Part shown: piece after piece, positions 2,687 through 64,000 of the stretch
Position numbering within the stretch: position 1 is the first letter of the stretch
Layout of the letters: every line of letters starts with the position of its first letter
Source: Dehalococcoidia bacterium
Lineage (GTDB): Bacteria; Chloroflexota; Dehalococcoidia; SZUA-161; SpSt-899
NCBI GenBank assembly: GCA_046498265.1
Contig: JAWOBB010000041.1
Span: forward strand, 18,362-82,361
Direction of reading: 5' to 3'
Length of the DNA: 64,000 nt
Made by a program: the position numbers and the translations under genes
Notes under the pieces: model-generated
What the model was told of the DNA's origin: nothing
Database searches by the model: none
What the model saw: the letters and a program-made list of their open reading frames with translations, nothing else

Positions 2687-4585
2687 TCAGATAATTATGC
2701 CGGTATCGAATCCCCGCCTCATGGCATCGGCGGCGTTGCCGGGTGTGGCCGCATCGCCGATTTGATATATCTGGCCGACTTTCCCTTCAAGTTGTTCAGC
2801 CAGTTCGTTTCGCGATTTCACCCCGAGCGCCAGCACAAAGGTATCAAATCCTTGCCAGAAGGTCTCTTTCCCCTCGCTCATGACGGTTACCCCTGAGGTA
2901 TCGATCGCCTTAACCTCGGTGTTTTTGAAAAGCTCCACTCCCAGCTTTTTGAGACGGTGCATGAGGTGAAAATAGACCGTCCCGCCCATATCCGTGCCGA
3001 AGGCTTTGAGCATCTCCACCACCGATACCCTCTTTCCCTGCTCAGCCAGGAATTCCGCCGTCTCCAGCCCGGTGGCCCCTCCGCCAATGACCAGTACTCG
3101 TTCCCCGGCGGGGACATTCCGCAAAGCCTGCCAGGCAGTTACCACTTCGGGCCGGTCGAACCCCTCGATCGGCGGCACCAGCGGCTCAGCCCCGGTGGCT
3201 ATTACCACTACATCGGAATCGGTTGTTATCACCTCTTCGGCGGTGACCCGATGGCCGCATTCTATCTTGACTCCGAGAATCTCTAACTCTCTGGAAAGCC
3301 AGTTAACCAGGCTTAAAAAAACCTGCTTGTGAGGGGGGCGGGATGCCAGTATCCACTGCCCCCCCATTTCATCGGCTGCCTCGTATAGAGCGACCTGATG
3401 GCCTCTAAGGGCAGCTATCCTCGCTGCTTCCAGTCCGGCCAGTCCGGCTCCGATAACCATTACTTTCCTGGACTGACTGGCAGAACGGATATCGATCTCC
3501 GACTCTCGACCGGCGAGGGGATTGACGGCGCAGGCGATGTGGCCGTTGTAGTCCGTATCCAGACAGACGTTGCAGGCAATGCAGCGGCGAATCCGGTCGG
3601 CCTCGCCTCGATAGCTTTTATTCGGCAGTTCCGGGTCGGCCACCAGTCCCCGGGTAATGGCGACGAGGTCAGCTTTGCCGCCAGCCAGTATCTCCTCCGC
3701 CAGTTGCGGGGTGTTGATCCGCCCGGCGGTTACTACGGGAACATTTACCACGCTCTTAACAGCGGCAGCCAGGTTGGTATAGCACCCTTCGGGTGTGTCG
3801 CTCGGGGGAATGGTCAGGGGGTATGAACCGATCGCTCCTGCCGAAACGCTGAGTAAATGCAGCCCTTCGCTTTCCAGCAAAGGGGCAATTTCCTGAGCAT
3901 CCTCGATGGTCGAGCCGCCGGGCACATTCTCCGCGCCGTTGATACGGCAGCTTAAGCGGAAATCGGGACCCACCTCGCTTCGGAGAGCCTGAATGATTCC
4001 CCGGACGATTCGGGTTCGCCCGTACACGTCGCCGCCGTATTCATCGGTTCGCTTGTTTCCCAGAGGGGAAAGGAACTGGCTGAGCAGATATCCGTGGGCG
4101 GCGTGAATCTCGATGAGGTCGAACCCGGCCTGACGGGCCCTTTGAGCAGCCTGAGCAAATTTGCCGGTGAGCTCCTCGATTCGCTTTTCCGACAGCTCTG
4201 CGGGCGGAATCGGGGGCAGGAACCGGGCATTCTTTTCACCCGTCCTCCAGCCGGCATGAAAAAGCTGAGCGCCGATTTTGGCACCGTTGTCTTGAACTGT
4301 CTTGACTATTTCGCCCAGTCTGTCGATGAACCTGTCTTCGTGGAGAAAAAGGAACCTGTCTTCCCCTTCCGGCTCGACGAAACATGCCTCCATCAAGATC
4401 AGCCCCACCCCACCCCGGGCCCGGGCGGCGTAGAATTCCCGCAAAGCCGGGGTTACCATACCGTCGGAGGCCAGGCGCGTTCCCACCGGGGACATGACGA
4501 TCCTGTTTCTGGTCTCCAGTTGCCCGATCCGGAGCGGCTCGAACAGGTGCGGGAAAGCGGTCTCGGAATTCGTCATGGATTCCAA
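2687..4585 (-). CDS. Old Yellow Enzyme-family NADH:flavin oxidoreductase fused to an FAD/NAD(P)-binding domain (2,4-dienoyl-CoA reductase FadH-like)
   Basis: 632 aa. N-terminal OYE TIM-barrel motifs (HAAHGYLLSQFLSP, GGS..ED). Cys cluster CIACNVC...C for an Fe-S site. C-terminal Rossmann GxGxxG motifs (VMVIGAGLAG, VLVIGGGATG). Confidence 0.85.
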   Translation of the reverse strand: MESMTNSETAFPHLFEPLRIGQLETRNRIVMSPVGTRLASDGMVTPALREFYAARARGGVGLILMEACFVEPEGEDRFLFLHEDRFIDRLGEIVKTVQDNGAKIGAQLFHAGWRTGEKNARFLPPIPPAELSEKRIEELTGKFAQAAQRARQAGFDLIEIHAAHGYLLSQFLSPLGNKRTDEYGGDVYGRTRIVRGIIQALRSEVGPDFRLSCRINGAENVPGGSTIEDAQEIAPLLESEGLHLLSVSAGAIGSYPLTIPPSDTPEGCYTNLAAAVKSVVNVPVVTAGRINTPQLAEEILAGGKADLVAITRGLVADPELPNKSYRGEADRIRRCIACNVCLDTDYNGHIACAVNPLAGRESEIDIRSASQSRKVMVIGAGLAGLEAARIAALRGHQVALYEAADEMGGQWILASRPPHKQVFLSLVNWLSRELEILGVKIECGHRVTAEEVITTDSDVVVIATGAEPLVPPIEGFDRPEVVTAWQALRNVPAGERVLVIGGGATGLETAEFLAEQGKRVSVVEMLKAFGTDMGGTVYFHLMHRLKKLGVELFKNTEVKAIDTSGVTVMSEGKETFWQGFDTFVLALGVKSRNELAEQLEGKVGQIYQIGDAATPGNAADAMRRGFDTGIII

Positions 4586-5533: not shown

Positions 5534-6487
5534 TTAAGTGAAGCTGAGTACCCACCGCACCACCCCGACAACGACCAGCACGATGCCTTCTTTTCGGGTA
5601 ATCCGCCATCCAGTGCGCATGAAAATCAATACCATCAGCACCATCCCGGCCAGCGCAATCAGATTCGACCTTGCTTCGATATCCACATCGGGAAGATCCC
5701 CCAGGATGGCTGCCAGGCCCAGAACCCCGAACAGGTTAAAGGTATCACTGCCGATAAGATTACCCACTGACATTCCGGCCCGGCCGCGCAGGGCCGCCAC
5801 CAGGGAGGTAGCAAATTCGGGCATGGAGGTGCCGGCAGCGACGATGGTAGCCCCGATAACCCATTCGGAAATCCCGATTATCTTGGCCAGGTGAACGGAG
5901 CGGTCCACCATGAAATGCGAACTGCCCACCACCAACCCGACACCCAGCAGAAGGAAGAGTATATCGCGACGACGAAACTCGCCGACCGGTTTCTCCAGTT
6001 CGATGGGCTCCTTTTTCCAGTAGAGGTAACCCACGTAACCAATCAGCAGCGTAAATAAAACAGCCCCTTCAATTCGATTCAGCGACAGGTTCCACAGCAG
6101 AATGATAAGTAAGACCGAACCGAAAAAGAGGAAAACCCCGTCACGCCTGACGAGCGTTTTGCTTGTCCCCAGGCTGCGAACGATGGCCGTGCCGCCCAGG
6201 ATCAGGCCAAGGTTGAAGATATTGGAACCGACGATGTTACCCACGGAAATATCGCTCATGCCGCGAATTGCGGCTAAGATAGTAACGCCGAACTCCGGGG
6301 CGGAGGTGCCAAAGGCGACAATCGTCAGCCCGACCACCAGTTCCGAAACCCCAAGGCGGCGGGCGACCCTGGCCGCCGAATCCACCAGCCATACCGCTCC
6401 GAGTCCGATAAAGGCCATACAAGCCAGTATGACAACGACGTCGATAAAAATATCCAAAGCTTCTACCCTAAGCGCCTGTTCTATCAA
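5534..6487 (-). CDS. CaCA-family Na+/Ca2+ (K+-dependent) exchanger, YrbG-like
   Basis: 317 aa polytopic protein with two alpha-repeat motifs (GTSAPEFGVT..., GTSMPEFATSLVAA). Confidence 0.8.
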   Translation of the reverse strand: MIEQALRVEALDIFIDVVVILACMAFIGLGAVWLVDSAARVARRLGVSELVVGLTIVAFGTSAPEFGVTILAAIRGMSDISVGNIVGSNIFNLGLILGGTAIVRSLGTSKTLVRRDGVFLFFGSVLLIILLWNLSLNRIEGAVLFTLLIGYVGYLYWKKEPIELEKPVGEFRRRDILFLLLGVGLVVGSSHFMVDRSVHLAKIIGISEWVIGATIVAAGTSMPEFATSLVAALRGRAGMSVGNLIGSDTFNLFGVLGLAAILGDLPDVDIEARSNLIALAGMVLMVLIFMRTGWRITRKEGIVLVVVGVVRWVLSFT

Positions 6488-9525: not shown

Positions 9526-10765
9526 CCGGATTGCCATGCTCAGCACCCACGGATATTTCGACCCGGTCCCCCAACTGGGCAGAACGGACACCGGCGGTCA
9601 GGTAACCTACGTAATGGAACTGGGCAAAGCCCTTACCACCCACGGCGTGAAAGTGGATATCTATACCCGCTGGTTCGAGCAAACAAAGCAGCAGATCGAC
9701 CCCGTCCCGGATTGCCCGGATATGAGGGTGATACGCATACCGGCCGGCCCCTGGGAGTTTATTCCCAAGGAGTTCATCTATGATGTCCTTCCTGATTTGG
9801 CTGAAAACATGGCCGATTTCATTGGGGAAAACGACCTCAGCTATGATCTCTATCACGGCCATTACGTCGATGCCGGCATCGTCGCCCTCGATGTAGCCCG
9901 GGCAATGAACAAACCCGCCTTCTTCACGCCGCATTCTCTCGGTGCCTGGAAGCGCGACCAGATGGGCGGGAACCCGCAAGAGATGGAAAAGCAGTTTAAC
10001 TTCACCCGTCGCATCGCCGAGGAAATGCGGATTTTTAAATCGGTTAATGCCCAGACGCTGACGACTCAATTGCAATACGAAAAATTAAAAGAGCTTTATG
10101 ATTTCGATGCGGATAACATCGTCGTCATCGAGCCCGGCACCGACATTCATACCTTTCATCCCCTGGCACCCGGCGAGAAAGAAACTGAGATCAGCCTGCC
10201 CCCCAAATACATCTTCTGTATCAGCCGGATCGATTCCAACAAGGGCCACGACATGCTGCTGCGGGCTTTCGACATCACCAGAAAAGAAGTGCCCGATGTC
10301 GACCTGGTTATCGGCGGCGGCTCGCCGCATCCCAAACAAAGGGAACTGGATATCAAGGCCGGGATGCAGGGGATCGTCGATGAATGCGGCATGGCGGAGC
10401 GGGTGCATATAATCGGCTACGTGCCGGACGAGCTGATGGCCCCTTACTATCGGCAGGCGCAGCTTTTTGCGCTTCCGTCACTCTTCGAGCCGTTCGGCAT
10501 GACCACCACCGAGGCCATGGCCTGCGGCACACCCGTGGTTGCCTCCAGATTCGGGGGCATCAGGACGGTCATCAATTCCGGGGAGAACGGGATTCTGGTG
10601 GACCCGACCGATGCTGAGGAATTCGCCGCAGCCATGATCGAGCTACTCAAAGACAGGGAAAAGGCCGAAAGGATCGGGGAGGCCGGGGCACAGACAGTCA
10701 GGGATCATCTGAGCTGGGAGGCCATTGCCCGCCGCCACCTCGAATTCTACGAGAGGTTCATGTAG
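9518..10765 (+). CDS. GT4-family glycosyltransferase, sucrose-phosphate-synthase-like
   Basis: N-terminus MLSTHGYFDPVPQLGRTDTGGQVTYVMELGKAL is diagnostic of the SPS / mannosylfructose-phosphate synthase clade; C-terminal GT4 motif EPFGMTTTEAMACGTPVVAS. Confidence 0.75.
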   Translation: MFSRIAMLSTHGYFDPVPQLGRTDTGGQVTYVMELGKALTTHGVKVDIYTRWFEQTKQQIDPVPDCPDMRVIRIPAGPWEFIPKEFIYDVLPDLAENMADFIGENDLSYDLYHGHYVDAGIVALDVARAMNKPAFFTPHSLGAWKRDQMGGNPQEMEKQFNFTRRIAEEMRIFKSVNAQTLTTQLQYEKLKELYDFDADNIVVIEPGTDIHTFHPLAPGEKETEISLPPKYIFCISRIDSNKGHDMLLRAFDITRKEVPDVDLVIGGGSPHPKQRELDIKAGMQGIVDECGMAERVHIIGYVPDELMAPYYRQAQLFALPSLFEPFGMTTTEAMACGTPVVASRFGGIRTVINSGENGILVDPTDAEEFAAAMIELLKDREKAERIGEAGAQTVRDHLSWEAIARRHLEFYERFM

Positions 10766-10890
10766 GGGTGATTTTCTATCGTTACCATGATCTTCGTGGG
10801 AAGCATCTGATTATGAACGTGATATAATAGGATAACTCGACGGTCATCTTCGGCAGTAAGATGAATGAAAGATCCTTCAGGAAATATTGA

Positions 10891-55643: not shown

Positions 55644-57431
55644 ATGTGCGGCATCGTCGGCTACGTGGGCTACCGGGAGGCCCGGCCAATCCTTCTCGAT
55701 TCCCTGAAGCGGATGGAATACCGGGGATACGATTCCTGCGGTATCGCCATCTCCGCCGACAGCGAGCTCGAGCTCCATAAAGGGGTGGGACGCGTGGTGG
55801 ATTTCGAGCAAACCATCCCTGAAATACAGGGCACCATCGGCATCGGGCATACCAGGTGGGCAACCCATGGCGAAGTCACTGCGGATAACGCCCATCCTCA
55901 TACCGATTGCGACGGCAAAATCGCCGTGGTCCACAACGGGGTGATTGAGAACTTCCAGGGACTGCGAGAACAACTGACCAATGACGGGCATCGCTTCAAC
56001 TCCGACACGGATACCGAGGTCATCGCCCACCTGATTGAAAAATACTACCGCGGGAATTTGAAGGAAGCTGTCAGCGAAGCTTTAAAAGAGGTTGCGGGGA
56101 CCTACGCTATCGTGGCCACGGCCGAAGGGTGCCGGGAACTCGTGGCCGCCCGGAAGGAAAGCCCTCTGGTTATCGGCATAGGGGATAAGGAAAACTTCGT
56201 CGCTTCGGATGTAGCCGCCATACTTGATTACACCGACAGGGCGATTTACCTGGAAGATGATGACCTCGCCATAGTAACGGAGAACGATATTGCCATCACC
56301 AGTAACGGCGAGCCGTTACAAAGGGAGGTACAGATAGTGCCCTGGACCGTTGACGAGGCTAAAAAGGCCGGGTACGAACATTTCATGCTCAAGGAAATAC
56401 ACGAGCAGCCCAGGGCCATCGAGAAGACCCTCCGGGGGCGAATCTCATCGATTGAGCCCATGACTCAACTTGGAATCGAGGAGGCAGGCCAGCTCGAAAA
56501 ACTGCTTCTGCTGGCCTGCGGCACTTCATATCACGCCGCCCTGATAGGAGAATATGTCATCGGCAGGCTCTGCCACATACCCGTAAACTCGAAGATCAGC
56601 TCGGAATTCCACCATGTCGAGATGGCGCTGGACAGGACCTGGGCGATGGGTATCAGCCAGTCCGGTGAGACCGCCGATACCCTGGGGGCCCTTAAAAAAG
56701 CCAAGGCGCTGGGATGCCCCACCCTGGGAATCACCAACGTCAGGGGAAGCACCATCACCCGTCTGGTGGACGAAGTTCTCTATACCGAATCAGGACCCGA
56801 AATAGGCGTGGCGGCCACCAAGACTTTCCTTACTCAACTGGCTACACTTTATCTGTTCGCCCTCTCCCACGCCTCCCTGGACCAGCAGGCCTTCGAAAGT
56901 TTTACGGAAGAGTTTCGCCTGCTTCCCGCCAGCATACAGCAGGTTCTCGACTCCGAAAGCGAGATTGCCTCCCAGGGAAGGGCCCTGGCCAGATACGACA
57001 ACGCCTTTTTCATCGGGCGGGGGGTCAGCTTTCCGGTAGCCATGGAAGGAGCCTTAAAGCTGAAGGAAATTTCTTATATCCATGCGGAGGCCTACCCCGG
57101 CGGCGAGATCAAGCACGGGCCCTTCGCCCTGCTGCGCAGCAACACCCCGGTGGTTGCCGTGACCGCCCCCGACGATACCTACGAGCCGATGCTCACCAGC
57201 ATCAAGGAAATCAAAGCCAGGGGACCGCAGGTCCTCGCCGTAGCCGAGAGGGAAGACGACATAATCGAGCAATATGTCGATACAGTAATAAGGGTGCCGA
57301 AAGTCGACCCGCTGTTCTCGCCTTTCGTAAACACAGTCGCTTTGCAATTACTGGCCTATTATGCCGCCAGGGAGAGGGGTTGCCCCATCGACCTCCCGGC
57401 CAATTTAGCCAAGAGTGTTACCGTGCCGTAG
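55644..57431 (+). CDS. glmS: Glutamine--fructose-6-phosphate aminotransferase
   Basis: MCGIVGYVGY N-terminal nucleophile and two SIS domains. Confidence 0.95.
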   Translation: MCGIVGYVGYREARPILLDSLKRMEYRGYDSCGIAISADSELELHKGVGRVVDFEQTIPEIQGTIGIGHTRWATHGEVTADNAHPHTDCDGKIAVVHNGVIENFQGLREQLTNDGHRFNSDTDTEVIAHLIEKYYRGNLKEAVSEALKEVAGTYAIVATAEGCRELVAARKESPLVIGIGDKENFVASDVAAILDYTDRAIYLEDDDLAIVTENDIAITSNGEPLQREVQIVPWTVDEAKKAGYEHFMLKEIHEQPRAIEKTLRGRISSIEPMTQLGIEEAGQLEKLLLLACGTSYHAALIGEYVIGRLCHIPVNSKISSEFHHVEMALDRTWAMGISQSGETADTLGALKKAKALGCPTLGITNVRGSTITRLVDEVLYTESGPEIGVAATKTFLTQLATLYLFALSHASLDQQAFESFTEEFRLLPASIQQVLDSESEIASQGRALARYDNAFFIGRGVSFPVAMEGALKLKEISYIHAEAYPGGEIKHGPFALLRSNTPVVAVTAPDDTYEPMLTSIKEIKARGPQVLAVAEREDDIIEQYVDTVIRVPKVDPLFSPFVNTVALQLLAYYAARERGCPIDLPANLAKSVTVP

Positions 57432-59298: not shown

Positions 59299-59765
59299 GG
59301 TACCACCTCCTTTTTTAAATTAACGTTAGTAAAATACTGGTGAGAACCCTTTCATTCACGAGGAGGGAATATTGTGAGAAATCATATTTCAGAAGCGGTG
59401 TCCCCTCATTGAAACATCCAGAGCTTCCTGTATAATACCATCATCGCCAATAAAAGTCTTGTTCAACCAAGTTCGGGGTTGGTACCATACCGCCACGGCG
59501 TTGCCGCTGCTGTCTACGGCTACCTGCGGGCTGTAAGAGCCCCAGCGTATCCTGACCATGGATCAAGCCTATAGACTCTCGACTAAAGATTTTTCCTGTT
59601 CCTGCGGTCCTCCGTGGGAACCAGTCCCCCACTCTCCGATTCCCCCATTCTCCCGTTCTCCCGACCCCTGCCCCCCAGTTGCCAGCTATCAGCGGTCAGT
59701 CATCAGTTCCCCCGATCCCTGACCCCCGTATCAACCAATAACCAGGGAGCCAAGTAACAAACAAA

Positions 59766-59810
59766 TGTAAACCTCCCTGTTTTAGTACCAGTCTAAATTA
59801 AAGGAGGTCA
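59766..59810. repeat. 45-bp perfect direct repeat, copy 1 (tgtaaacctccctgttttagtaccagtctaaattaaaggaggtca)
   Basis: Identical to 61463..61507. Contains a nested inverted repeat (cctcc...ggagg around tttag...ctaaa). The two copies bracket the low-GC two-gene module. Confidence 0.85.
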
Positions 59811-59829
59811 TTAGATAAAAAGTTTAATT

Positions 59830-60927
59830 TTAGCTTTTGTCACCCAGTTCTTTGAATATTTGATCAAAAGGTGTCAATGGCTGATATAAAGGCATTTCCT
59901 GAATTTGTGCCTTGACTTGATTCAAAATCATTAAGATTTCAAAGGCTGCTTCAAAAGAGAGTATACCATCACTCAAGGTTACATCAATTTCTTTGATGGC
60001 TTTCTTGATGAAGATCTCGACATGTTGTGGGTTGAGATGGCCATACTCTTTGCGGTTATCTTGAGAATCAAATATTTCGAATTCATCCTTCAAAAAATCA
60101 AGCTGAATACGCCCTCGCGAACCACAGATATTCATAGCTTTGGTGTCACTAGCCACGTATTTGCCCATAATAGCTCGAACTGGCAAATCACCAATTGTAA
60201 AATCCAGCAAGGCAAATGTTTCTCCGCAAATTGGGCATCCAACATATTGTGCCACCTTTACCTTGTCAAGTTTTATCCGTTGAAAACTTAGTTTGGGTAC
60301 GGTTGAGTCTCCTTCAACAAGAACACCAACAATGGCTAGAATGTGGCAGAACAGGTCAAAGATTATTCCTTTGTCCAGACTTTGCTCCCGATGTGGTGGA
60401 ATACTAGACGATTCCAGAATAGAGAAGTCTATTGATTTTAATTCACCTATTTCCCGAAGGCATTCTCTCTTTAGCCGTAAAAAAGGCCATGCTCTAGCAA
60501 GATAGTGATCAAAAGCAAATACGGTGTTCCGCTTTTGTTCTCTCTCAATCTTCTCTTTCAATGCTAGTGCCGATAACACAGAGACGTCAAGGGGCTTCTC
60601 AACAAAAATATTTCCTCTAGGATCTATATGATCGAGCCAGTAACTAGCCACAGAGGAATGGTATCGGTCAGGTGTCACAACAAAAACATGAGTTATATCG
60701 GAGGTATCGCTGTGTTGTCTATCATTTTTGTTGATATAGCGCACACTCCTGGAATGAGCCAGCACATGCCACAATTTTTTGATGTACGGGTCACCCAACC
60801 GTATCTCAGGCTCGATGCCTATTGCCAGAAGTTCGGTTTTCCCTTCCTGGACACTCTCCAATAAGGTAGGGAGATAATGCAGTTGGGCCCATTCCGTGTT
60901 GCAGCCTTCAAGGATTATCTTTTTCAT
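59830..60927 (-). CDS. Gfo/Idh/MocA-like oxidoreductase-fold protein with degenerate dinucleotide-binding motif
   Basis: Track ORF is 59830..60966; start moved to MKKIILEG. HVFVVTPDRYHSSVASYWLDHIDPRGNIFVEKPLDVSVLSALAL matches the Gfo/Idh/MocA signature, but the GxGxxG is replaced by LEGCNTE. About 40% GC versus about 58% in flanking DNA. Confidence 0.45.
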   Translation of the reverse strand: MKKIILEGCNTEWAQLHYLPTLLESVQEGKTELLAIGIEPEIRLGDPYIKKLWHVLAHSRSVRYINKNDRQHSDTSDITHVFVVTPDRYHSSVASYWLDHIDPRGNIFVEKPLDVSVLSALALKEKIEREQKRNTVFAFDHYLARAWPFLRLKRECLREIGELKSIDFSILESSSIPPHREQSLDKGIIFDLFCHILAIVGVLVEGDSTVPKLSFQRIKLDKVKVAQYVGCPICGETFALLDFTIGDLPVRAIMGKYVASDTKAMNICGSRGRIQLDFLKDEFEIFDSQDNRKEYGHLNPQHVEIFIKKAIKEIDVTLSDGILSFEAAFEILMILNQVKAQIQEMPLYQPLTPFDQIFKELGDKS

Positions 60928-60931
60928 TAGA

Positions 60932-61459
60932 TTAAATAGGAAATTCCCAGTCCCATATTTGTTCACCTAAGATTGTAACGAATAATCCCGCAAAAACAAG
61001 GAAAGTAAATAGATAGAATCCGAGAATCCATCTGAAGGTAGCTCTATTCACTAGCCAGTTTCTTAGTGATGATCCATCTGTATCCATTTTAATCTTCCTA
61101 GGGAATCCCAAATCCGCAGATTTCAAAGTTTCCGGGAAATCGCCCCTAACTTGCATTTCCTCTAGCGTATCTCTGATTCCCAATTCTCTGGATAGGAACC
61201 TAAGTAATTTTTCAGTACCGTCTCGATAATAGGTATCTTTGGCCACAGAAATACTAATCACTAATGAGAAATATGCTCCTATAAATAGCAAACAAAGCTT
61301 CACAGCCCACAACTCTTCCCCAACTGTCCCTAATGCAATGCCTACTAGTCCAAACAAAACTCCTGATGCGCCAAGTTTATCAAGCACGTATTTATCTCGT
61401 AAACACCAATCTTCGTAAAGTAATTCGTACTCGATTTTTTTAATTTTCTCTTTATCCAT
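60932..61459 (-). CDS. Hypothetical integral membrane protein
   Basis: 175 aa, about 4 TM helices, low GC. ATG preceded by GGGAGG contributed by the 45-bp repeat. Confidence 0.5.
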   Translation of the reverse strand: MDKEKIKKIEYELLYEDWCLRDKYVLDKLGASGVLFGLVGIALGTVGEELWAVKLCLLFIGAYFSLVISISVAKDTYYRDGTEKLLRFLSRELGIRDTLEEMQVRGDFPETLKSADLGFPRKIKMDTDGSSLRNWLVNRATFRWILGFYLFTFLVFAGLFVTILGEQIWDWEFPI

Positions 61460-61462
61460 TTT

Positions 61463-61507
61463 TGTAAACCTCCCTGTTTTAGTACCAGTCTAAATTAAAG
61501 GAGGTCA
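61463..61507. repeat. 45-bp perfect direct repeat, copy 2
   Basis: Identical to 59766..59810; here it supplies the SD for the 175-aa gene. Confidence 0.85.
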
Positions 61508-61674
61508 AGCCAGCCTATCCCAGGCCTCATGGTACTTCCTGACCCTGTCGATATCTTTGTCGGTGAGGGTTGGAAGCCGGGAAATATTCAGATTGTCTTC
61601 GATATCGGCTTTCTTGACCTTGACGGCCAGATCGTTCGTCTTCACCCGGTCGATGAATTCGAAATTAGAGACAG

Positions 61675-62022
61675 TTACTCTTCTTCACGAACGATATCAC
61701 CTTCGCAAAGGTCAAAAATCAAAGAATGGGCTTCGATATCAAACCACTTTTTGAAGGTGGCATAATCCCGTTTTTTCGGCCACATGCTTTCGTCGGTGCA
61801 CCATCCCCAAAGTTCGTTCTCAAAGATTTCTTCGTAGACACCCTTTAGAACTTTAAGGTGACCGTCTATTTCCTCATAACTCTTAACGAGGTATACGCTA
61901 TGATCGTCCTGAATTTCGGCCAGCGTGATATCACCATCCCCGTCATCTTCGGTGGAATTAACCCAATCCAGGAAGGGCTGTTTCGGCTTTATGACGACTA
62001 CTGCGCGATCAATTGTATACAT
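61675..62022 (-). CDS. Hypothetical protein (acidic, W-rich)
   Basis: 115-aa ORF with low GC. It is followed at 61506..61640 by a 45-codon open frame with no start codon (VKTNDLAVKVKKADIEDNLNISRLPTLTDKDIDRVRKYHEAWDRLA), a likely gene remnant. Confidence 0.4.
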   Translation of the reverse strand: MYTIDRAVVVIKPKQPFLDWVNSTEDDGDGDITLAEIQDDHSVYLVKSYEEIDGHLKVLKGVYEEIFENELWGWCTDESMWPKKRDYATFKKWFDIEAHSLIFDLCEGDIVREEE

Positions 62023-62146
62023 GTTTCACCGGGAATTAAACTGTTGGTCTGTCCGGAACTCAGTAGCTTAGTCGGAATAAAAGTGGGGTTTGGTGGCGAA
62101 GGTGCGCATGATGCTGACTACTTCGGCACCGGAGAGCCGCTTCAGT

Positions 62147-62374
62147 TTAGGGGACACCTGCCGGCTCCAGTTCGAAAGTAACCAGGAGAGAGGGATTAGG
62201 AGCCAAACCGAATTCGGCCAAGTCTTCACCTTCCAGGTGCAGGCCAACGGCCTCCTGCAAATTATGCATCGTTTTGTCTAGTGTTTTACCCTGGGTCACC
62301 ACAGCAATATCCATGCACTCGGCAATATAATATTCTTCACCTTTGTATACAAACGCTTTAATTGAATGGCGCAT
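62147..62374 (-). CDS. hicB: HicB-family antitoxin (UPF0150), apparently orphan
   Basis: YKGEEYYIAECMDIAVVTQGKTLDKTMHNLQEAVGLHLEGE is the HicB N-terminal domain signature. GGGAGG RBS present. Just downstream and overlapping (about 62068..62157, another frame) is a 29-codon HicA-like remnant (VSPKLKRLSGAEVVSIMRTFATKPHFYSD*). Confidence 0.7.
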   Translation of the reverse strand: MRHSIKAFVYKGEEYYIAECMDIAVVTQGKTLDKTMHNLQEAVGLHLEGEDLAEFGLAPNPSLLVTFELEPAGVP

Positions 62375-62567
62375 GCTGCCCTCCCGCTATGTCGTCAATT
62401 CCACAAATTTCCGGGCGATAGAGCCGTCTTTTCCGTTCCTCTATTTTATCCCATGTTTGCCGGTTACTCAATCAGTTCTCCCGACCCCTGCCCCCTGAAC
62501 CACGATCAATAATTATGTAGGGTATGACGTTAATTCGTGGGGTCCGGTTCAGGCATTACATCTTAAC

Positions 62568-62792
62568 CTATTTTAATTGCAGGAATTCTTCAATTGTCAA
62601 ACCAATGTCTTTGACAATCTGACGTAGCAGTATTGGTGAAATGTCTCTACCTTTGTGGAATGGGACAGTAGTTCGCCGTCCATCCGGGTGATTGAACTGT
62701 TTGTGAGAACCTCGTTGGCGAGTCTCTTTGAATCCAGCGGTGACTAATCTGGTTACTACTTCCTGTGGTTTGAGGGCTGGTACATTGCCCAT
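62568..62792 (-). CDS. hicA: HicA-family mRNA interferase toxin
   Basis: 74 aa; LKPQEVVTRLVTAGFKETRQRGSHKQFNHPDGRRTTVPFHKGRDISPILLRQIVKDIGL is the YcfA/HicA fold signature. 3 nt downstream of hicB. Confidence 0.8.
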   Translation of the reverse strand: MGNVPALKPQEVVTRLVTAGFKETRQRGSHKQFNHPDGRRTTVPFHKGRDISPILLRQIVKDIGLTIEEFLQLK

Positions 62793-62795
62793 TTT

Positions 62796-63017
62796 CTAGG
62801 CGACCACCACAGTCTGGATACCAACAAATTCGGCTTCCAAATCAGGCTCACCATCCTCAAGTAACATTGCGACTACCTCACGCAGGTTGTCGTTCAACTC
62901 GTCAAGTGTTTTGCCCTGAGAATGAGCGCCTGGAAAGCCCGGGATATAACCAACATAAAGGTCAGTGTCAGAACACTTTTCAATGACCGCTTGATATGTT
63001 TTCACGGGATACTCCAT
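62796..63017 (-). CDS. hicB: HicB-family antitoxin
   Basis: 73 aa; YQAVIEKCSDTDLYVGYIPGFPGAHSQGKTLDELNDNLREVVAMLLEDGE matches the HicB/UPF0150 signature. Confidence 0.8.
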   Translation of the reverse strand: MEYPVKTYQAVIEKCSDTDLYVGYIPGFPGAHSQGKTLDELNDNLREVVAMLLEDGEPDLEAEFVGIQTVVVA

Positions 63018-63219
63018 TTAGATCAATTCATCCACTATGGATATTCATTTTATCCCTAATCAGTAGATTTTGCAAAAGTTACGATATTCAACGGGCAATC
63101 CCCTTTTTGAATCAGAGGCATAAAGCTCGAATTGAGAAGCCGCCAGATGCATGGTAGCTGTGTCCCCCGATCCCCGACCCCTGATCCCTGTACTAGCCAC
63201 AGAGGGCACAGAGAACGCA

Positions 63220-63249
63220 GAAAAAAAACCTCCCTCCCTTGAGGGAGGG
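63220..63249 (-). terminator. Rho-independent terminator downstream of the methyltransferase cassette
   Basis: On the minus strand: 8-bp GC stem tccctccc / gggaggga, loop tcaa, then an 8-T run. Confidence 0.6.
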
Positions 63250-63443
63250 ATTAGAGGGAGGGTGAAATGCACAAATGAGTAGCAGGTTCACGGTGCCAAG
63301 TTCACGGTTATCGGTTCTCCTGTAGGGGCAATCCCTTGGCTGGTTCCTACGGTCCTCCGTGGGAACGGATTTCTCGTTTTCCGGCCCGTGCCTCCTGATC
63401 CCCAAACTACCATCAATAATTAATAAGGTGTATCTTTAATTAA

Positions 63444-64000
63444 TCATTCGATTACATTACTCATTTTTGAGGGAATAATGCTCCATCGTATTCTTGATAA
63501 ATCCTCATTAGCATTAGGTTTTCGAAAAACGAAGAGGTGTTCATGCATGATGAGATAGAAACCGTATTGTTTTGCACGAGTTATCCAGCGAGTTGAATAG
63601 ACACAGTTATGCTGTGCTTTTATAATGTCCTCTTTTAAGGCAAATCCGTTTTGTAGAAACTTTTGAAGTACCAAATATGAAAGTGGAACGTAGTGTTGGG
63701 CTTTCCGCGTATCGCCAACCAAAATCGCACAATAACGATTCGGTTTAAGAACGCGGTACATCTCTTTTATGCCAGCATCTAGTTCATCGCAGAATTTCTG
63801 AGGGCTGGCAATATTTGAAAAGTCCCCTTCGATTTTACCTTTAGAATATGTAACGAGGTTAAGGTATGGAGGATGGGTACATATTAAGTCAATAGAATTG
63901 TTTTTAGTATAATTAAGTGAGCGTACGTCCGCTTGATATACATCCTGTTTTGAATTTGTGGTAAACTCAAAATCAATCGCTTGCCTCGTCAGTTCGACTG
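63444..64000 (-). CDS. DNA methyltransferase (N6-adenine/N4-cytosine, DPPY-motif class), C-terminal part; gene runs off the window end
   Basis: The frame stays open beyond the track ORF's first Met: ...DLICTHPPYLNLVTYSKGKIEGDFSNIA...MYRVLKPNRYCAILVGD... DLICTHPPY is motif IV and RYCAILVGD lies in the catalytic region. About 40-45% GC. Confidence 0.75.
   Translation of the reverse strand, partial: VELTRQAIDFEFTTNSKQDVYQADVRSLNYTKNNSIDLICTHPPYLNLVTYSKGKIEGDFSNIASPQKFCDELDAGIKEMYRVLKPNRYCAILVGDTRKAQHYVPLSYLVLQKFLQNGFALKEDIIKAQHNCVYSTRWITRAKQYGFYLIMHEHLFVFRKPNANEDLSRIRWSIIPSKMSNVIE

Follow-up and report, generated by a model that had tools for sequence, protein, structure and literature searches.

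Perfect 45-bp direct repeats around a low-GC two-gene module in a Dehalococcoidia genome as probable junctions of a recombinational insertion

How does a pair of genes come to lie between two perfect copies of one 45-bp sequence? This question is raised by a 64,000-nucleotide stretch of contig JAWOBB010000041.1 from a Dehalococcoidia metagenome-assembled genome (MAG), called the window in the following. The 45-mer TGTAAACCTCCCTGTTTTAGTACCAGTCTAAATTAAAGGAGGTCA occurs in it twice, at 59766-59810 and 61463-61507, on either side of a membrane protein gene and a dehydrogenase-like gene. We regard the two copies as probable junctions of an insertion, by whatever enzyme it was made; a recombinase-independent, homology-anchored route is a reasonable but tentative choice for the mechanism. 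The feature would then be a further example of a known event, the repeat-flanked recombinational insertion, and a fairly ordinary footprint of it. The features concerned are:

61505-61645, minus strand: orphan open reading frame (ORF) of 46 aa, NCBI R6U37_05110, whose stop codon opens the upstream copy of the 45-mer
61463-61507, minus strand: upstream (coding-sense) copy of the 45-mer, described below by sequence, identity and fold
59811-61462, minus strand: probable inserted unit between the repeats, 1652 bp, two minus-strand genes
60932-61459, minus strand: membrane protein gene, 175 aa, first cargo gene, three hydrophobic segments
59830-60927, minus strand: dehydrogenase-like gene, 365 aa (378 aa from the GTG at 60966), second cargo gene
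59766-59810, minus strand: downstream copy of the 45-mer, starting 19 nt past the dehydrogenase stop codon

The repeat and the segment it encloses

As a sequence-only reading of this locus had stated, the two copies are identical (45/45 positions); their start-to-start distance is 1697 bp. At up to 3 mismatches they are the only copies in the 64-kb window (expectation from shuffled sequence, 0.00), and their borders are sharp, since alignment of the 200-nt flanks on either side scores at most marginally above shuffled sequence. A longer imperfect repeat was also considered, but neither an extension nor decayed similarity was seen beside the 45-mer. Whether the sequence is dispersed was checked with an exact pattern of its core, the loop being left free, which gave zero matches in public genome, metagenome and viral collections; there is thus neither a third copy in the window nor a match in the three collections. 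The 45-mer has a GC content of 38%, AT-rich like the module, versus 50% in the 46-aa ORF, and forms an imperfect inverted repeat with the arms ACCTCC..TTTAG and CTAAA..GGAGGT around a 7-nt spacer. Identities as attC, dif or CRISPR repeat were rejected by eye on length and box order.

Both copies sit tightly against coding sequence. The upstream copy opens with TGA (61505-61507), which serves as stop codon for the 46-aa ORF. This ORF finds only itself in database searches and is presumably a resident gene whose 3' hairpin served as recombination point. This copy carries CCTCC at 61500-61504 and, at 61469-61473, the GGAGG Shine-Dalgarno sequence located 9 nt before the ATG of the membrane protein gene; it ends 3 nt ahead of this ATG on the coding strand. 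The downstream copy runs into the U-rich stretch TTTGTTTGTTAC with no gene after it, in agreement with the earlier reading: by inspection of the sequence, just a 25-codon TTG frame follows, and then a repeat element.

The segment in between holds exactly two genes, as had been proposed, and its non-coding ends measure only 3 nt before the first ATG and 19 nt after the last stop codon. Its GC content of 40.3% (about 40% in the earlier reading) compares with 54.0% in window positions 1-59300. No terminal inverted repeats were found at the segment ends; a 15-nt direct match (D17) near both inner ends lacks a symmetric position and was judged a chance occurrence in AT-rich sequence. Neither cargo gene has a recombinase or transposase domain, nor has any of the five neighbours that were tested, to which the screen within the window was confined. 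PADLOC found no defence system in cargo and neighbours, and the viral collection held no relatives of either cargo gene.

Repeat-bracketed modules at other loci and a possible route of insertion

Further evidence for insertion junctions comes from other loci carrying the same module. In fetched loci bearing homologs (labelled L001 etc.), repeat-flanked cases were sought by an exact-repeat scan and by local alignment of upstream versus downstream flanks, and two further significant repeat-bracketed modules were found beyond the window. At locus L036, an 84-bp repeat (307-390 and 2101-2184) brackets the pair of type-A membrane protein and dehydrogenase genes. The repeated sequence is the 3'-terminal coding part of proS: 63 bp are perfect, and the remaining 21 bp contain 2 differences, both synonymous. 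Past the upstream copy, ProS ends in GRGTAK*, with a stop codon that overlaps the ATG of the membrane protein gene, as in the repeat-free locus L033; past the downstream copy, it ends in a different tail, SEGLSKLSNSV*. Moreover, the downstream copy shares its initial 9 nt, AGCGCCGAG, with the module's own 3' flank, to which they belong because repeat-free L033 has the homologous ATCAGGCGCGCAGGGTGGCGCCAAG there. The arrangement fits a double event in which the left side was exchanged by homologous recombination within proS and the right side was joined through microhomology; the two copies would in that case represent the donor and the recipient allele.

In the second case, a 23-bp tRNA 3'-end repeat brackets a dehydrogenase gene and a type-B membrane protein gene at L055 (5579-5601 and 7898-7920), and the same arrangement is present in a separate assembly, L038 (148-170 and 2467-2489). 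The repeat copies show one T-loop difference, which is again allele-like, and no integrase lies within 5 kb of the L055 module. The tRNA itself may contain an intron and possibly be archaeal, since its Rfam match extends over 116 nt and ARAGORN does not detect it. At all three sites (the window, L036 and L055/L038), the target gene lies upstream and is co-directional with the module. The repeats around the module (45, 84 and 23 bp) have no common motif. The same module, a discrete low-GC unit, is bracketed by repeats in at least two independent cases, which supports the earlier suggestion that the repeats delimit an inserted two-gene unit.

A comparable pattern was seen around different cargo. 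At L002 (6642-6670 and 7258-7286), a HicA-HicB pair has a version of the leuD start on each side, comprising the ribosome-binding site and the first 12 codons; the two versions have diverged from each other, with 29 bp perfect, and look allele-like and unlike a fill-in duplication. The HicA-HicB insertion sits in the leucine operon, whose leuC-leuD interval holds three other inserted genes.

Beyond the repeat-bracketed cases, the pair itself behaves as a unit. In the 58 fetched loci, Dehalococcoidia and Chloroflexi homologs of the dehydrogenase usually have a membrane protein of 170-200 aa directly upstream, often overlapping, and in some loci the two are fused into proteins of 526-620 aa (e.g., P0003 and P0004). 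By alignment, the membrane protein of the window is 50-55% identical to the dehydrogenase partners in L019, L021, L033 and L036. A second partner type (B) occurs in L002, L020, L055 and the fusions; homology between the two types is not demonstrable (hhalign probability 18%, E 0.0013). The position of the module follows phylogeny, with a leuA-module-leuC, a proS-module and a metK-module-glmM clade. The window dehydrogenase groups with the last of these, and glmM lies about 1 kb downstream in the window as well. We compared GC in 24 module-bearing loci (L001-L055): the module lies below at least one flank in nearly all and below both flanks in most, typically at about 41-42% against flanks of 47-55%, i.e., about 5-10 points lower, and the deficit holds even where the position (leuA-leuC, proS, metK-glmM) is clade-conserved. 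Such persistently low GC is the pattern of a unit that seems to have been exchanged horizontally again and again. The membrane protein and dehydrogenase form a conserved, discrete low-GC module in dozens of metagenomic loci, which appears to be exchangeable.

How could the module have entered the window? We propose that the recipient site was a terminator-like hairpin downstream of a small ORF, where one unit of a variable low-GC island ends, and that a promoter-less cassette of 1.65 kb with the two genes was inserted there by recombination. Of the two 45-mers, one would have been present at the site beforehand and the other brought in by the incoming DNA. The two would have been joined by host recombination through the shared 45-mer, either by a single crossover of a looped-out or circular intermediate or by homology-facilitated illegitimate recombination, in which the upstream side pairs by homology and the other side is joined illegitimately; the element itself would contribute neither a transposase nor an integrase. 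As a consequence, the upstream copy would now provide the Shine-Dalgarno sequence of the membrane protein gene, the downstream copy would be a by-product, the cassette could be read through from the upstream genes, and the 45-bp identity would make it deletable by homologous recombination. The 45-mer itself may be a cassette-end hairpin used as identity stretch, because it is not present in other modules, is not dispersed, is AT-rich, folds through CCUCC/GGAGG and, in its downstream copy, is followed by a U-rich run. An empty site would read as the 46-aa ORF, a single 45-mer and TTTGTTTGTTAC, and a circular or tandem form as ...TTATCTAA, the 45-mer and AAAATGGAT.

Precedents in the literature on repeat-flanked segments and ssrA islands make such a homology-driven route plausible. 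In Escherichia coli, Staphylococcus aureus and Streptococcus pyogenes, direct repeats flank 10-18% of the small variable segments, and homology-assisted illegitimate recombination is accepted as one way in which repeat-flanked segments arise (Touzain et al., 2010, PMC2884548). Homology-facilitated illegitimate recombination is attributed there to de Vries and Wackernagel (2002) and Prudhomme et al. (2002). The combination of alleles and microhomology at L036 fits a homology-anchored illegitimate event of this kind.

Several points weigh against this proposal for the window. The copies are identical and their borders sharp, so that this case by itself shows none of the allele or microhomology signals of L036. 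Neither an empty site nor a donor arrangement was found in the genome, metagenome and viral collections, so that a perfect, sharp repeat fits a trans-acting recombinase or a staggered-cut duplication equally well; exact-protein look-ups for the membrane protein, its 115-aa neighbour, the dehydrogenase (P0001), SnoaL, HicA and P0046 had none on record. Moreover, with a 7-nt spacer between imperfectly palindromic arms, the 45-mer looks like the core site of a simple recombinase system. As the module lies near glmM as in its closest clade, it may be near its ancestral place, and the repeat may have arisen by a more complex local rearrangement. Finally, the tight bracketing is partly an ascertainment effect, because the repeat search looked only close to the module. 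A tandem duplication followed by precise loss of the second module was also considered and set aside as less parsimonious, because two exact events would be needed.

Other explanations of the repeat

The alternative that survives best, although we consider it unlikely, is that the repeats are attL/attR cores: a recombinase encoded elsewhere would recognise the palindromic 45-mer and insert or excise a 1.7-kb circle, as in integrase-less islands or cis-mobilisable elements with a recombinase supplied in trans. A perfect, sharply bounded repeat in two copies only, forming an imperfect inverted repeat with a fold z-score of -2.7, would suit such a core. The L055/L038 module sits at a tRNA 3' end, a classic integrase target, and in Dehalococcoides 15 of 31 ssrA islands with 20-bp repeats have no integration module of their own (McMurdie et al., 2011, PMC3146451). 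The window target, however, is not a tRNA, tmRNA or conserved gene, and neither a third copy nor a tandem array is present in the window. The non-coding cargo ends of 3 and 19 nt leave no room for arm sites. Because the three repeats share no motif, no single recombinase site is common to the modules. Of the att-type source proposed earlier, the identical boundary repeats are present, whereas a recombinase (in the cargo and five neighbours, the rest of the window not being screened) and a shared core were not found.

A broader reading appears distinctly doubtful to us when all its parts are taken jointly. The module might represent a recombinase-less mobile cassette family, in Dehalococcoidia and perhaps archaea, that lands co-directionally at the 3' ends of expressed genes (tRNA, proS, a small ORF) via an unrecognised trans-acting or host pathway and leaves repeats of 23-84 bp; the same pathway might also shuffle ORF-sized units of the island.

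It is improbable that the repeat is a long target-site duplication. In this reading, the hairpin would have been nicked with a stagger of 45 nt, a linear fragment ligated in and the gaps then filled, by a casposase-like, a non-homologous end joining-type or a structure-specific nuclease route. Identical copies with sharp borders on both sides and no flanking similarity would be expected from such an event, and the hairpin could extrude as a cruciform and attract nicking. Yet the repeats around the same module differ in length, those of L036 and L002 fade into diverged, allele-like sequence with microhomology that fill-in does not predict, and the right border of each repeat is the end of a functional unit (tRNA end, conserved part of proS, hairpin). 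As neither a transposase or casposase (in the genes tested) nor terminal inverted repeats were found, a transposase-type target duplication of fixed length, one of the sources listed in the earlier reading, is disfavoured. Its third source, a duplicated 5' untranslated region, holds only trivially, in that the Shine-Dalgarno sequence is provided by the upstream copy.

The sequence-only reading had further considered the 45-mer a plausible element of translational control or RNA stability, with GGAGG paired to the upstream CCTCC. This hairpin exists: as minus-strand RNA the 45-mer folds at -13.6 to -13.9 kcal/mol (-13.6 kcal/mol in the free-energy check), with CCUCCUU pairing to AGGGAGG. The structure is real but modest. 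Its z-score is -2.7 for the 45-mer alone and an unremarkable -1.5 to -1.7 with flanks, and in the downstream context a pairing of GGGAGG with a downstream CUCCC outcompetes the hairpin (z -0.2). The leaders of orthologous modules in L019, L021, L033 and L036 are unrelated to the 45-mer, some overlapping the proS stop codon and others having a plain AGGGGA; Rfam gave zero matches at E<=1 over 58.5-64 kb, and a simple terminator scan does not call the hairpin. A regulatory role is hence unsupported, because the hairpin is absent from the orthologous 5' regions. It is nevertheless conceivable that termination at the end of the 46-aa ORF unmasks the Shine-Dalgarno sequence, as the stop codon of this ORF lies directly at the 5' arm.

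A canonical intrinsic terminator is found in the same island at window positions 63229-63250 (minus strand), where CCCTCCCTCAAGGGAGGGAGG is followed by T8 and preceded by CACCCTCCCTCT; the motif CACCCTCCCTCT/CCCTCCCTCAAGGGAGGGAGG recurs at L060 735-775, on an ENA contig from another sample. Its stem, of the CCUCC/GGAGG style and followed by U8, suggests that the 45-mer is a terminator-like hairpin at a cassette end.

These observations bear on the idea that both copies of the 45-mer are maintained as a functional RNA element, the upstream one sequestering the Shine-Dalgarno sequence (through coupling of membrane protein translation to termination of the 46-aa ORF at the UGA in the 5' arm, or as a thermometer-like switch) and the downstream one acting as terminator or stabiliser. 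The stable pairing, the abutting stop codon, the U-rich stretch after the downstream copy and the stem style shared with the bona fide island terminator speak for it. We nonetheless hold it to be very improbable, as the element is not conserved, has no Rfam match and no further copy in the window or the collections scanned, and as function alone leaves an exact copy on each side of the module unexplained.

Least probable of all is an assembly artefact, in which the assembler would have built into the contig a 1.7-kb circle or strain variant that has the 45-mer in common with the chromosome: the genome is metagenome-assembled, the GC of the insert differs from the core and a graph node of at most 45 bp could link circle and chromosome, but the neighbouring island sequence is likewise low in GC, analogous repeat-flanked modules occur in other assemblies (one of them in two separate ones, L038 and L055), 45 is an unusual final k-mer length among common assembler defaults, and even so the biology would be similar, namely a circle sharing 45 bp with the chromosome.

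The cargo, the island and comparison with known systems

The second cargo gene is identical (100%) to NCBI R6U37_05100 (P0001) of a Dehalococcoidia MAG, encoded on a contig of 94,406 nt. Its mechanically called ORF reaches the GTG at 60966, and the gene begins 4 nt past the stop of the membrane protein gene. It had been described as a degenerate Gfo/Idh/MocA-like enzyme, but it shows a confident predicted fold and conserved EKP and DHYL motifs. The AlphaFold model, built with 17 homologs, has a mean pLDDT of 90.6, and its best Foldseek matches in the PDB are G6PD (E 1.8e-18, TM 0.73) and Gfo/Idh/MocA sugar dehydrogenases, including KijD10 and GnnA (overall E about 1e-18 to 1e-15, TM 0.65-0.73). 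E110, K111 and P112 (EKP) and H141 of DHYL are invariant in the 17 homologs, with Y and L near-invariant, whereas Pfam support is marginal (G6PD_N 23.9 bits at a cut-off of 22.1; GFO_IDH_MocA under cut-off). The model thus points to membership in the G6PD/Gfo-Idh-MocA superfamily, with a predicted Rossmann N-domain, an alpha/beta C-domain and the EKP and D-H-Y motifs.

For the membrane protein, a Kyte-Doolittle scan gave three hydrophobic segments rather than the four transmembrane segments claimed earlier, and Pfam, NCBIfam and PADLOC returned zero matches. Homologs of the dehydrogenase adjoin NTP-transferase/hexapeptide genes in contigs of the candidate phyla radiation (Saccharibacteria, Parcubacteria), neighbourhoods that hint at a nucleotide-sugar role. 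On a Saccharibacteria contig (L012), a repeat of about 100 nt occurs three times (3776-3878, 5722-5822 and about 10750-10855), flanking a distant dehydrogenase homolog, with one copy beside a tRNA-Leu (5867-5954).

The surroundings of the module are themselves variable. The first 59 kb of the window are apparent core genome, and a domain search was applied to its last stretch. Near the island it identified two NTP-transferase/hexapeptide proteins and a phosphoglucomutase-family gene taken as glmM; glmS (55644-57431) and the large rpoB/rpoC-sized ORFs at 45-53 kb were named from their translations only. From about 59.3 kb onward GC falls to 42-48%; this stretch, an island that continues past the end of the window at 64000, contains HicA/HicB, a HicB-like gene with a HicA remnant, a methylase fragment and orphan ORFs, with a G-rich repeat element in between. 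The occurrence next to the module is:

59590-59745, minus strand: repeat element 'A', a G-rich heptamer-like run and the palindrome GTTCCCACGGAGGACCGCAGGAAC (repeats D1, D2, D4 and D8)

It starts some 20 nt beyond the downstream copy of the 45-mer, where it marks the following unit of the island. On the minus (coding) strand and between gene units, the element occurs at 59590-59745, 62470-62520, 63160-63200 and 63335-63425 of the window, and related elements are present in L059 (1-108), L060 (60-240 and 600-700) and L061 (1-180). Its parts follow in the order TAATTATTGATnGTGG, the G-rich heptamer-like run (GGGGnCAGGGGTCGGGAGAAC...) and a 24-nt imperfect palindrome, GTTCCCACGGAGGACCG(C/T)AGGAAC, which lies about 30-50 nt before a start codon and is identical in contigs from other samples. 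No strong fold, Rfam match or fit to attC was found for the element.

An orphan gene of 115 aa (61675-62022) has copies of at least 90% identity in L059, L060 and L061, each time as an ORF-sized unit but in differing contexts: between two repeat elements in L060, followed by a TIR-like 356-aa gene in L059, and after the HicA remnant in the window. The similarity extends only some 25 nt upstream of the ATG and some 20 nt past the stop codon, and another copy of at least 90% identity, MFO8101404.1, lies on a second contig of the same MAG. Compared with these three loci, the island appears to be a mosaic of shuffled ORF-sized units. At 62068-62374, a HicB-like 75-aa gene is followed by about the first 26 codons of a HicA toxin gene, as read from the translation; this looks like a decayed toxin-antitoxin pair and adjoins an intact HicB/HicA pair at 62568-63017.

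If the repeats mark a recombinational insertion as proposed, the locus would offer a clean natural case of an uncultivated, streamlined lineage gaining small modules without dedicated mobile-element machinery, and the flanking repeats would make this gain reversible. The recurrence of a membrane anchor with a G6PD/Gfo-type dehydrogenase, wedged among housekeeping genes in many Dehalococcoidia, could point to a frequently exchanged, uncharacterised sugar or envelope function. This recurrent module and the island, with its shuffled ORF-sized units and a repeat element of its own, are the more interesting by-products of the analysis; a regulatory hairpin would matter only if an effect on expression were shown.

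Among known systems, the small variable segments share with the window a short, recombinase-free insertion between direct repeats, with one side, as proposed here, anchored in resident homology. They have microhomology at the other junction, as does the related case L036, and their repeats can later mediate deletion. The 45 perfect bp of the window, however, exceed most of their repeats, 66-94% of which are shorter than 30 bp (Touzain et al., 2010, PMC2884548).

The ssrA islands of Dehalococcoides come from the same bacterial class and also hold low-GC cargo bounded by a direct repeat of the upstream gene's 3' end; such islands, delimited by a 20-bp ssrA repeat, are frequent, and an integration module of their own is present in only 16 of 31 (McMurdie et al., 2011, PMC3146451), so that about half resemble the window in lacking integration genes. 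In contrast, all of them share the one 20-bp ssrA repeat and the serine recombinase DsiB, form tandem arrays and measure several kb or more, whereas the window has a unique intergenic hairpin repeat and no recombinase among the genes tested, and the other copies of its module have unrelated repeats.

Integron cassettes resemble the unit in being promoter-less, ORF-sized and co-oriented in an array with partly palindromic bounds. An attC site usually spans 57-141 bp with R''(..AAC)/R'(GTT..) outer boxes and paired L boxes, and neighbouring cassettes do not have identical attC sites. The 45-mer differs in being only 45 bp long, in having no AAC...GTT frame by eye and in its two identical copies; an IntI was not seen among the cargo genes and five neighbours, other window ORFs not being screened.

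With hairpins that sequester a Shine-Dalgarno sequence, as in RNA thermometers or translational coupling, the 45-mer shares an anti-Shine-Dalgarno CCUCC paired to the GGAGG that serves a downstream start codon, and an upstream stop codon abutting the stem; it differs by its lack of conservation, covariation and family match, and by a second copy that serves no gene. The cargo enzyme, finally, has the predicted two-domain fold, the GxxGxxA-like N-terminus and the EKP and DHY(L) motifs of the G6PD/Gfo-Idh-MocA enzymes, but is only 12-16% identical to solved members, scores marginally in Pfam and is set apart by a small membrane protein as its usual partner or fused N-terminus.

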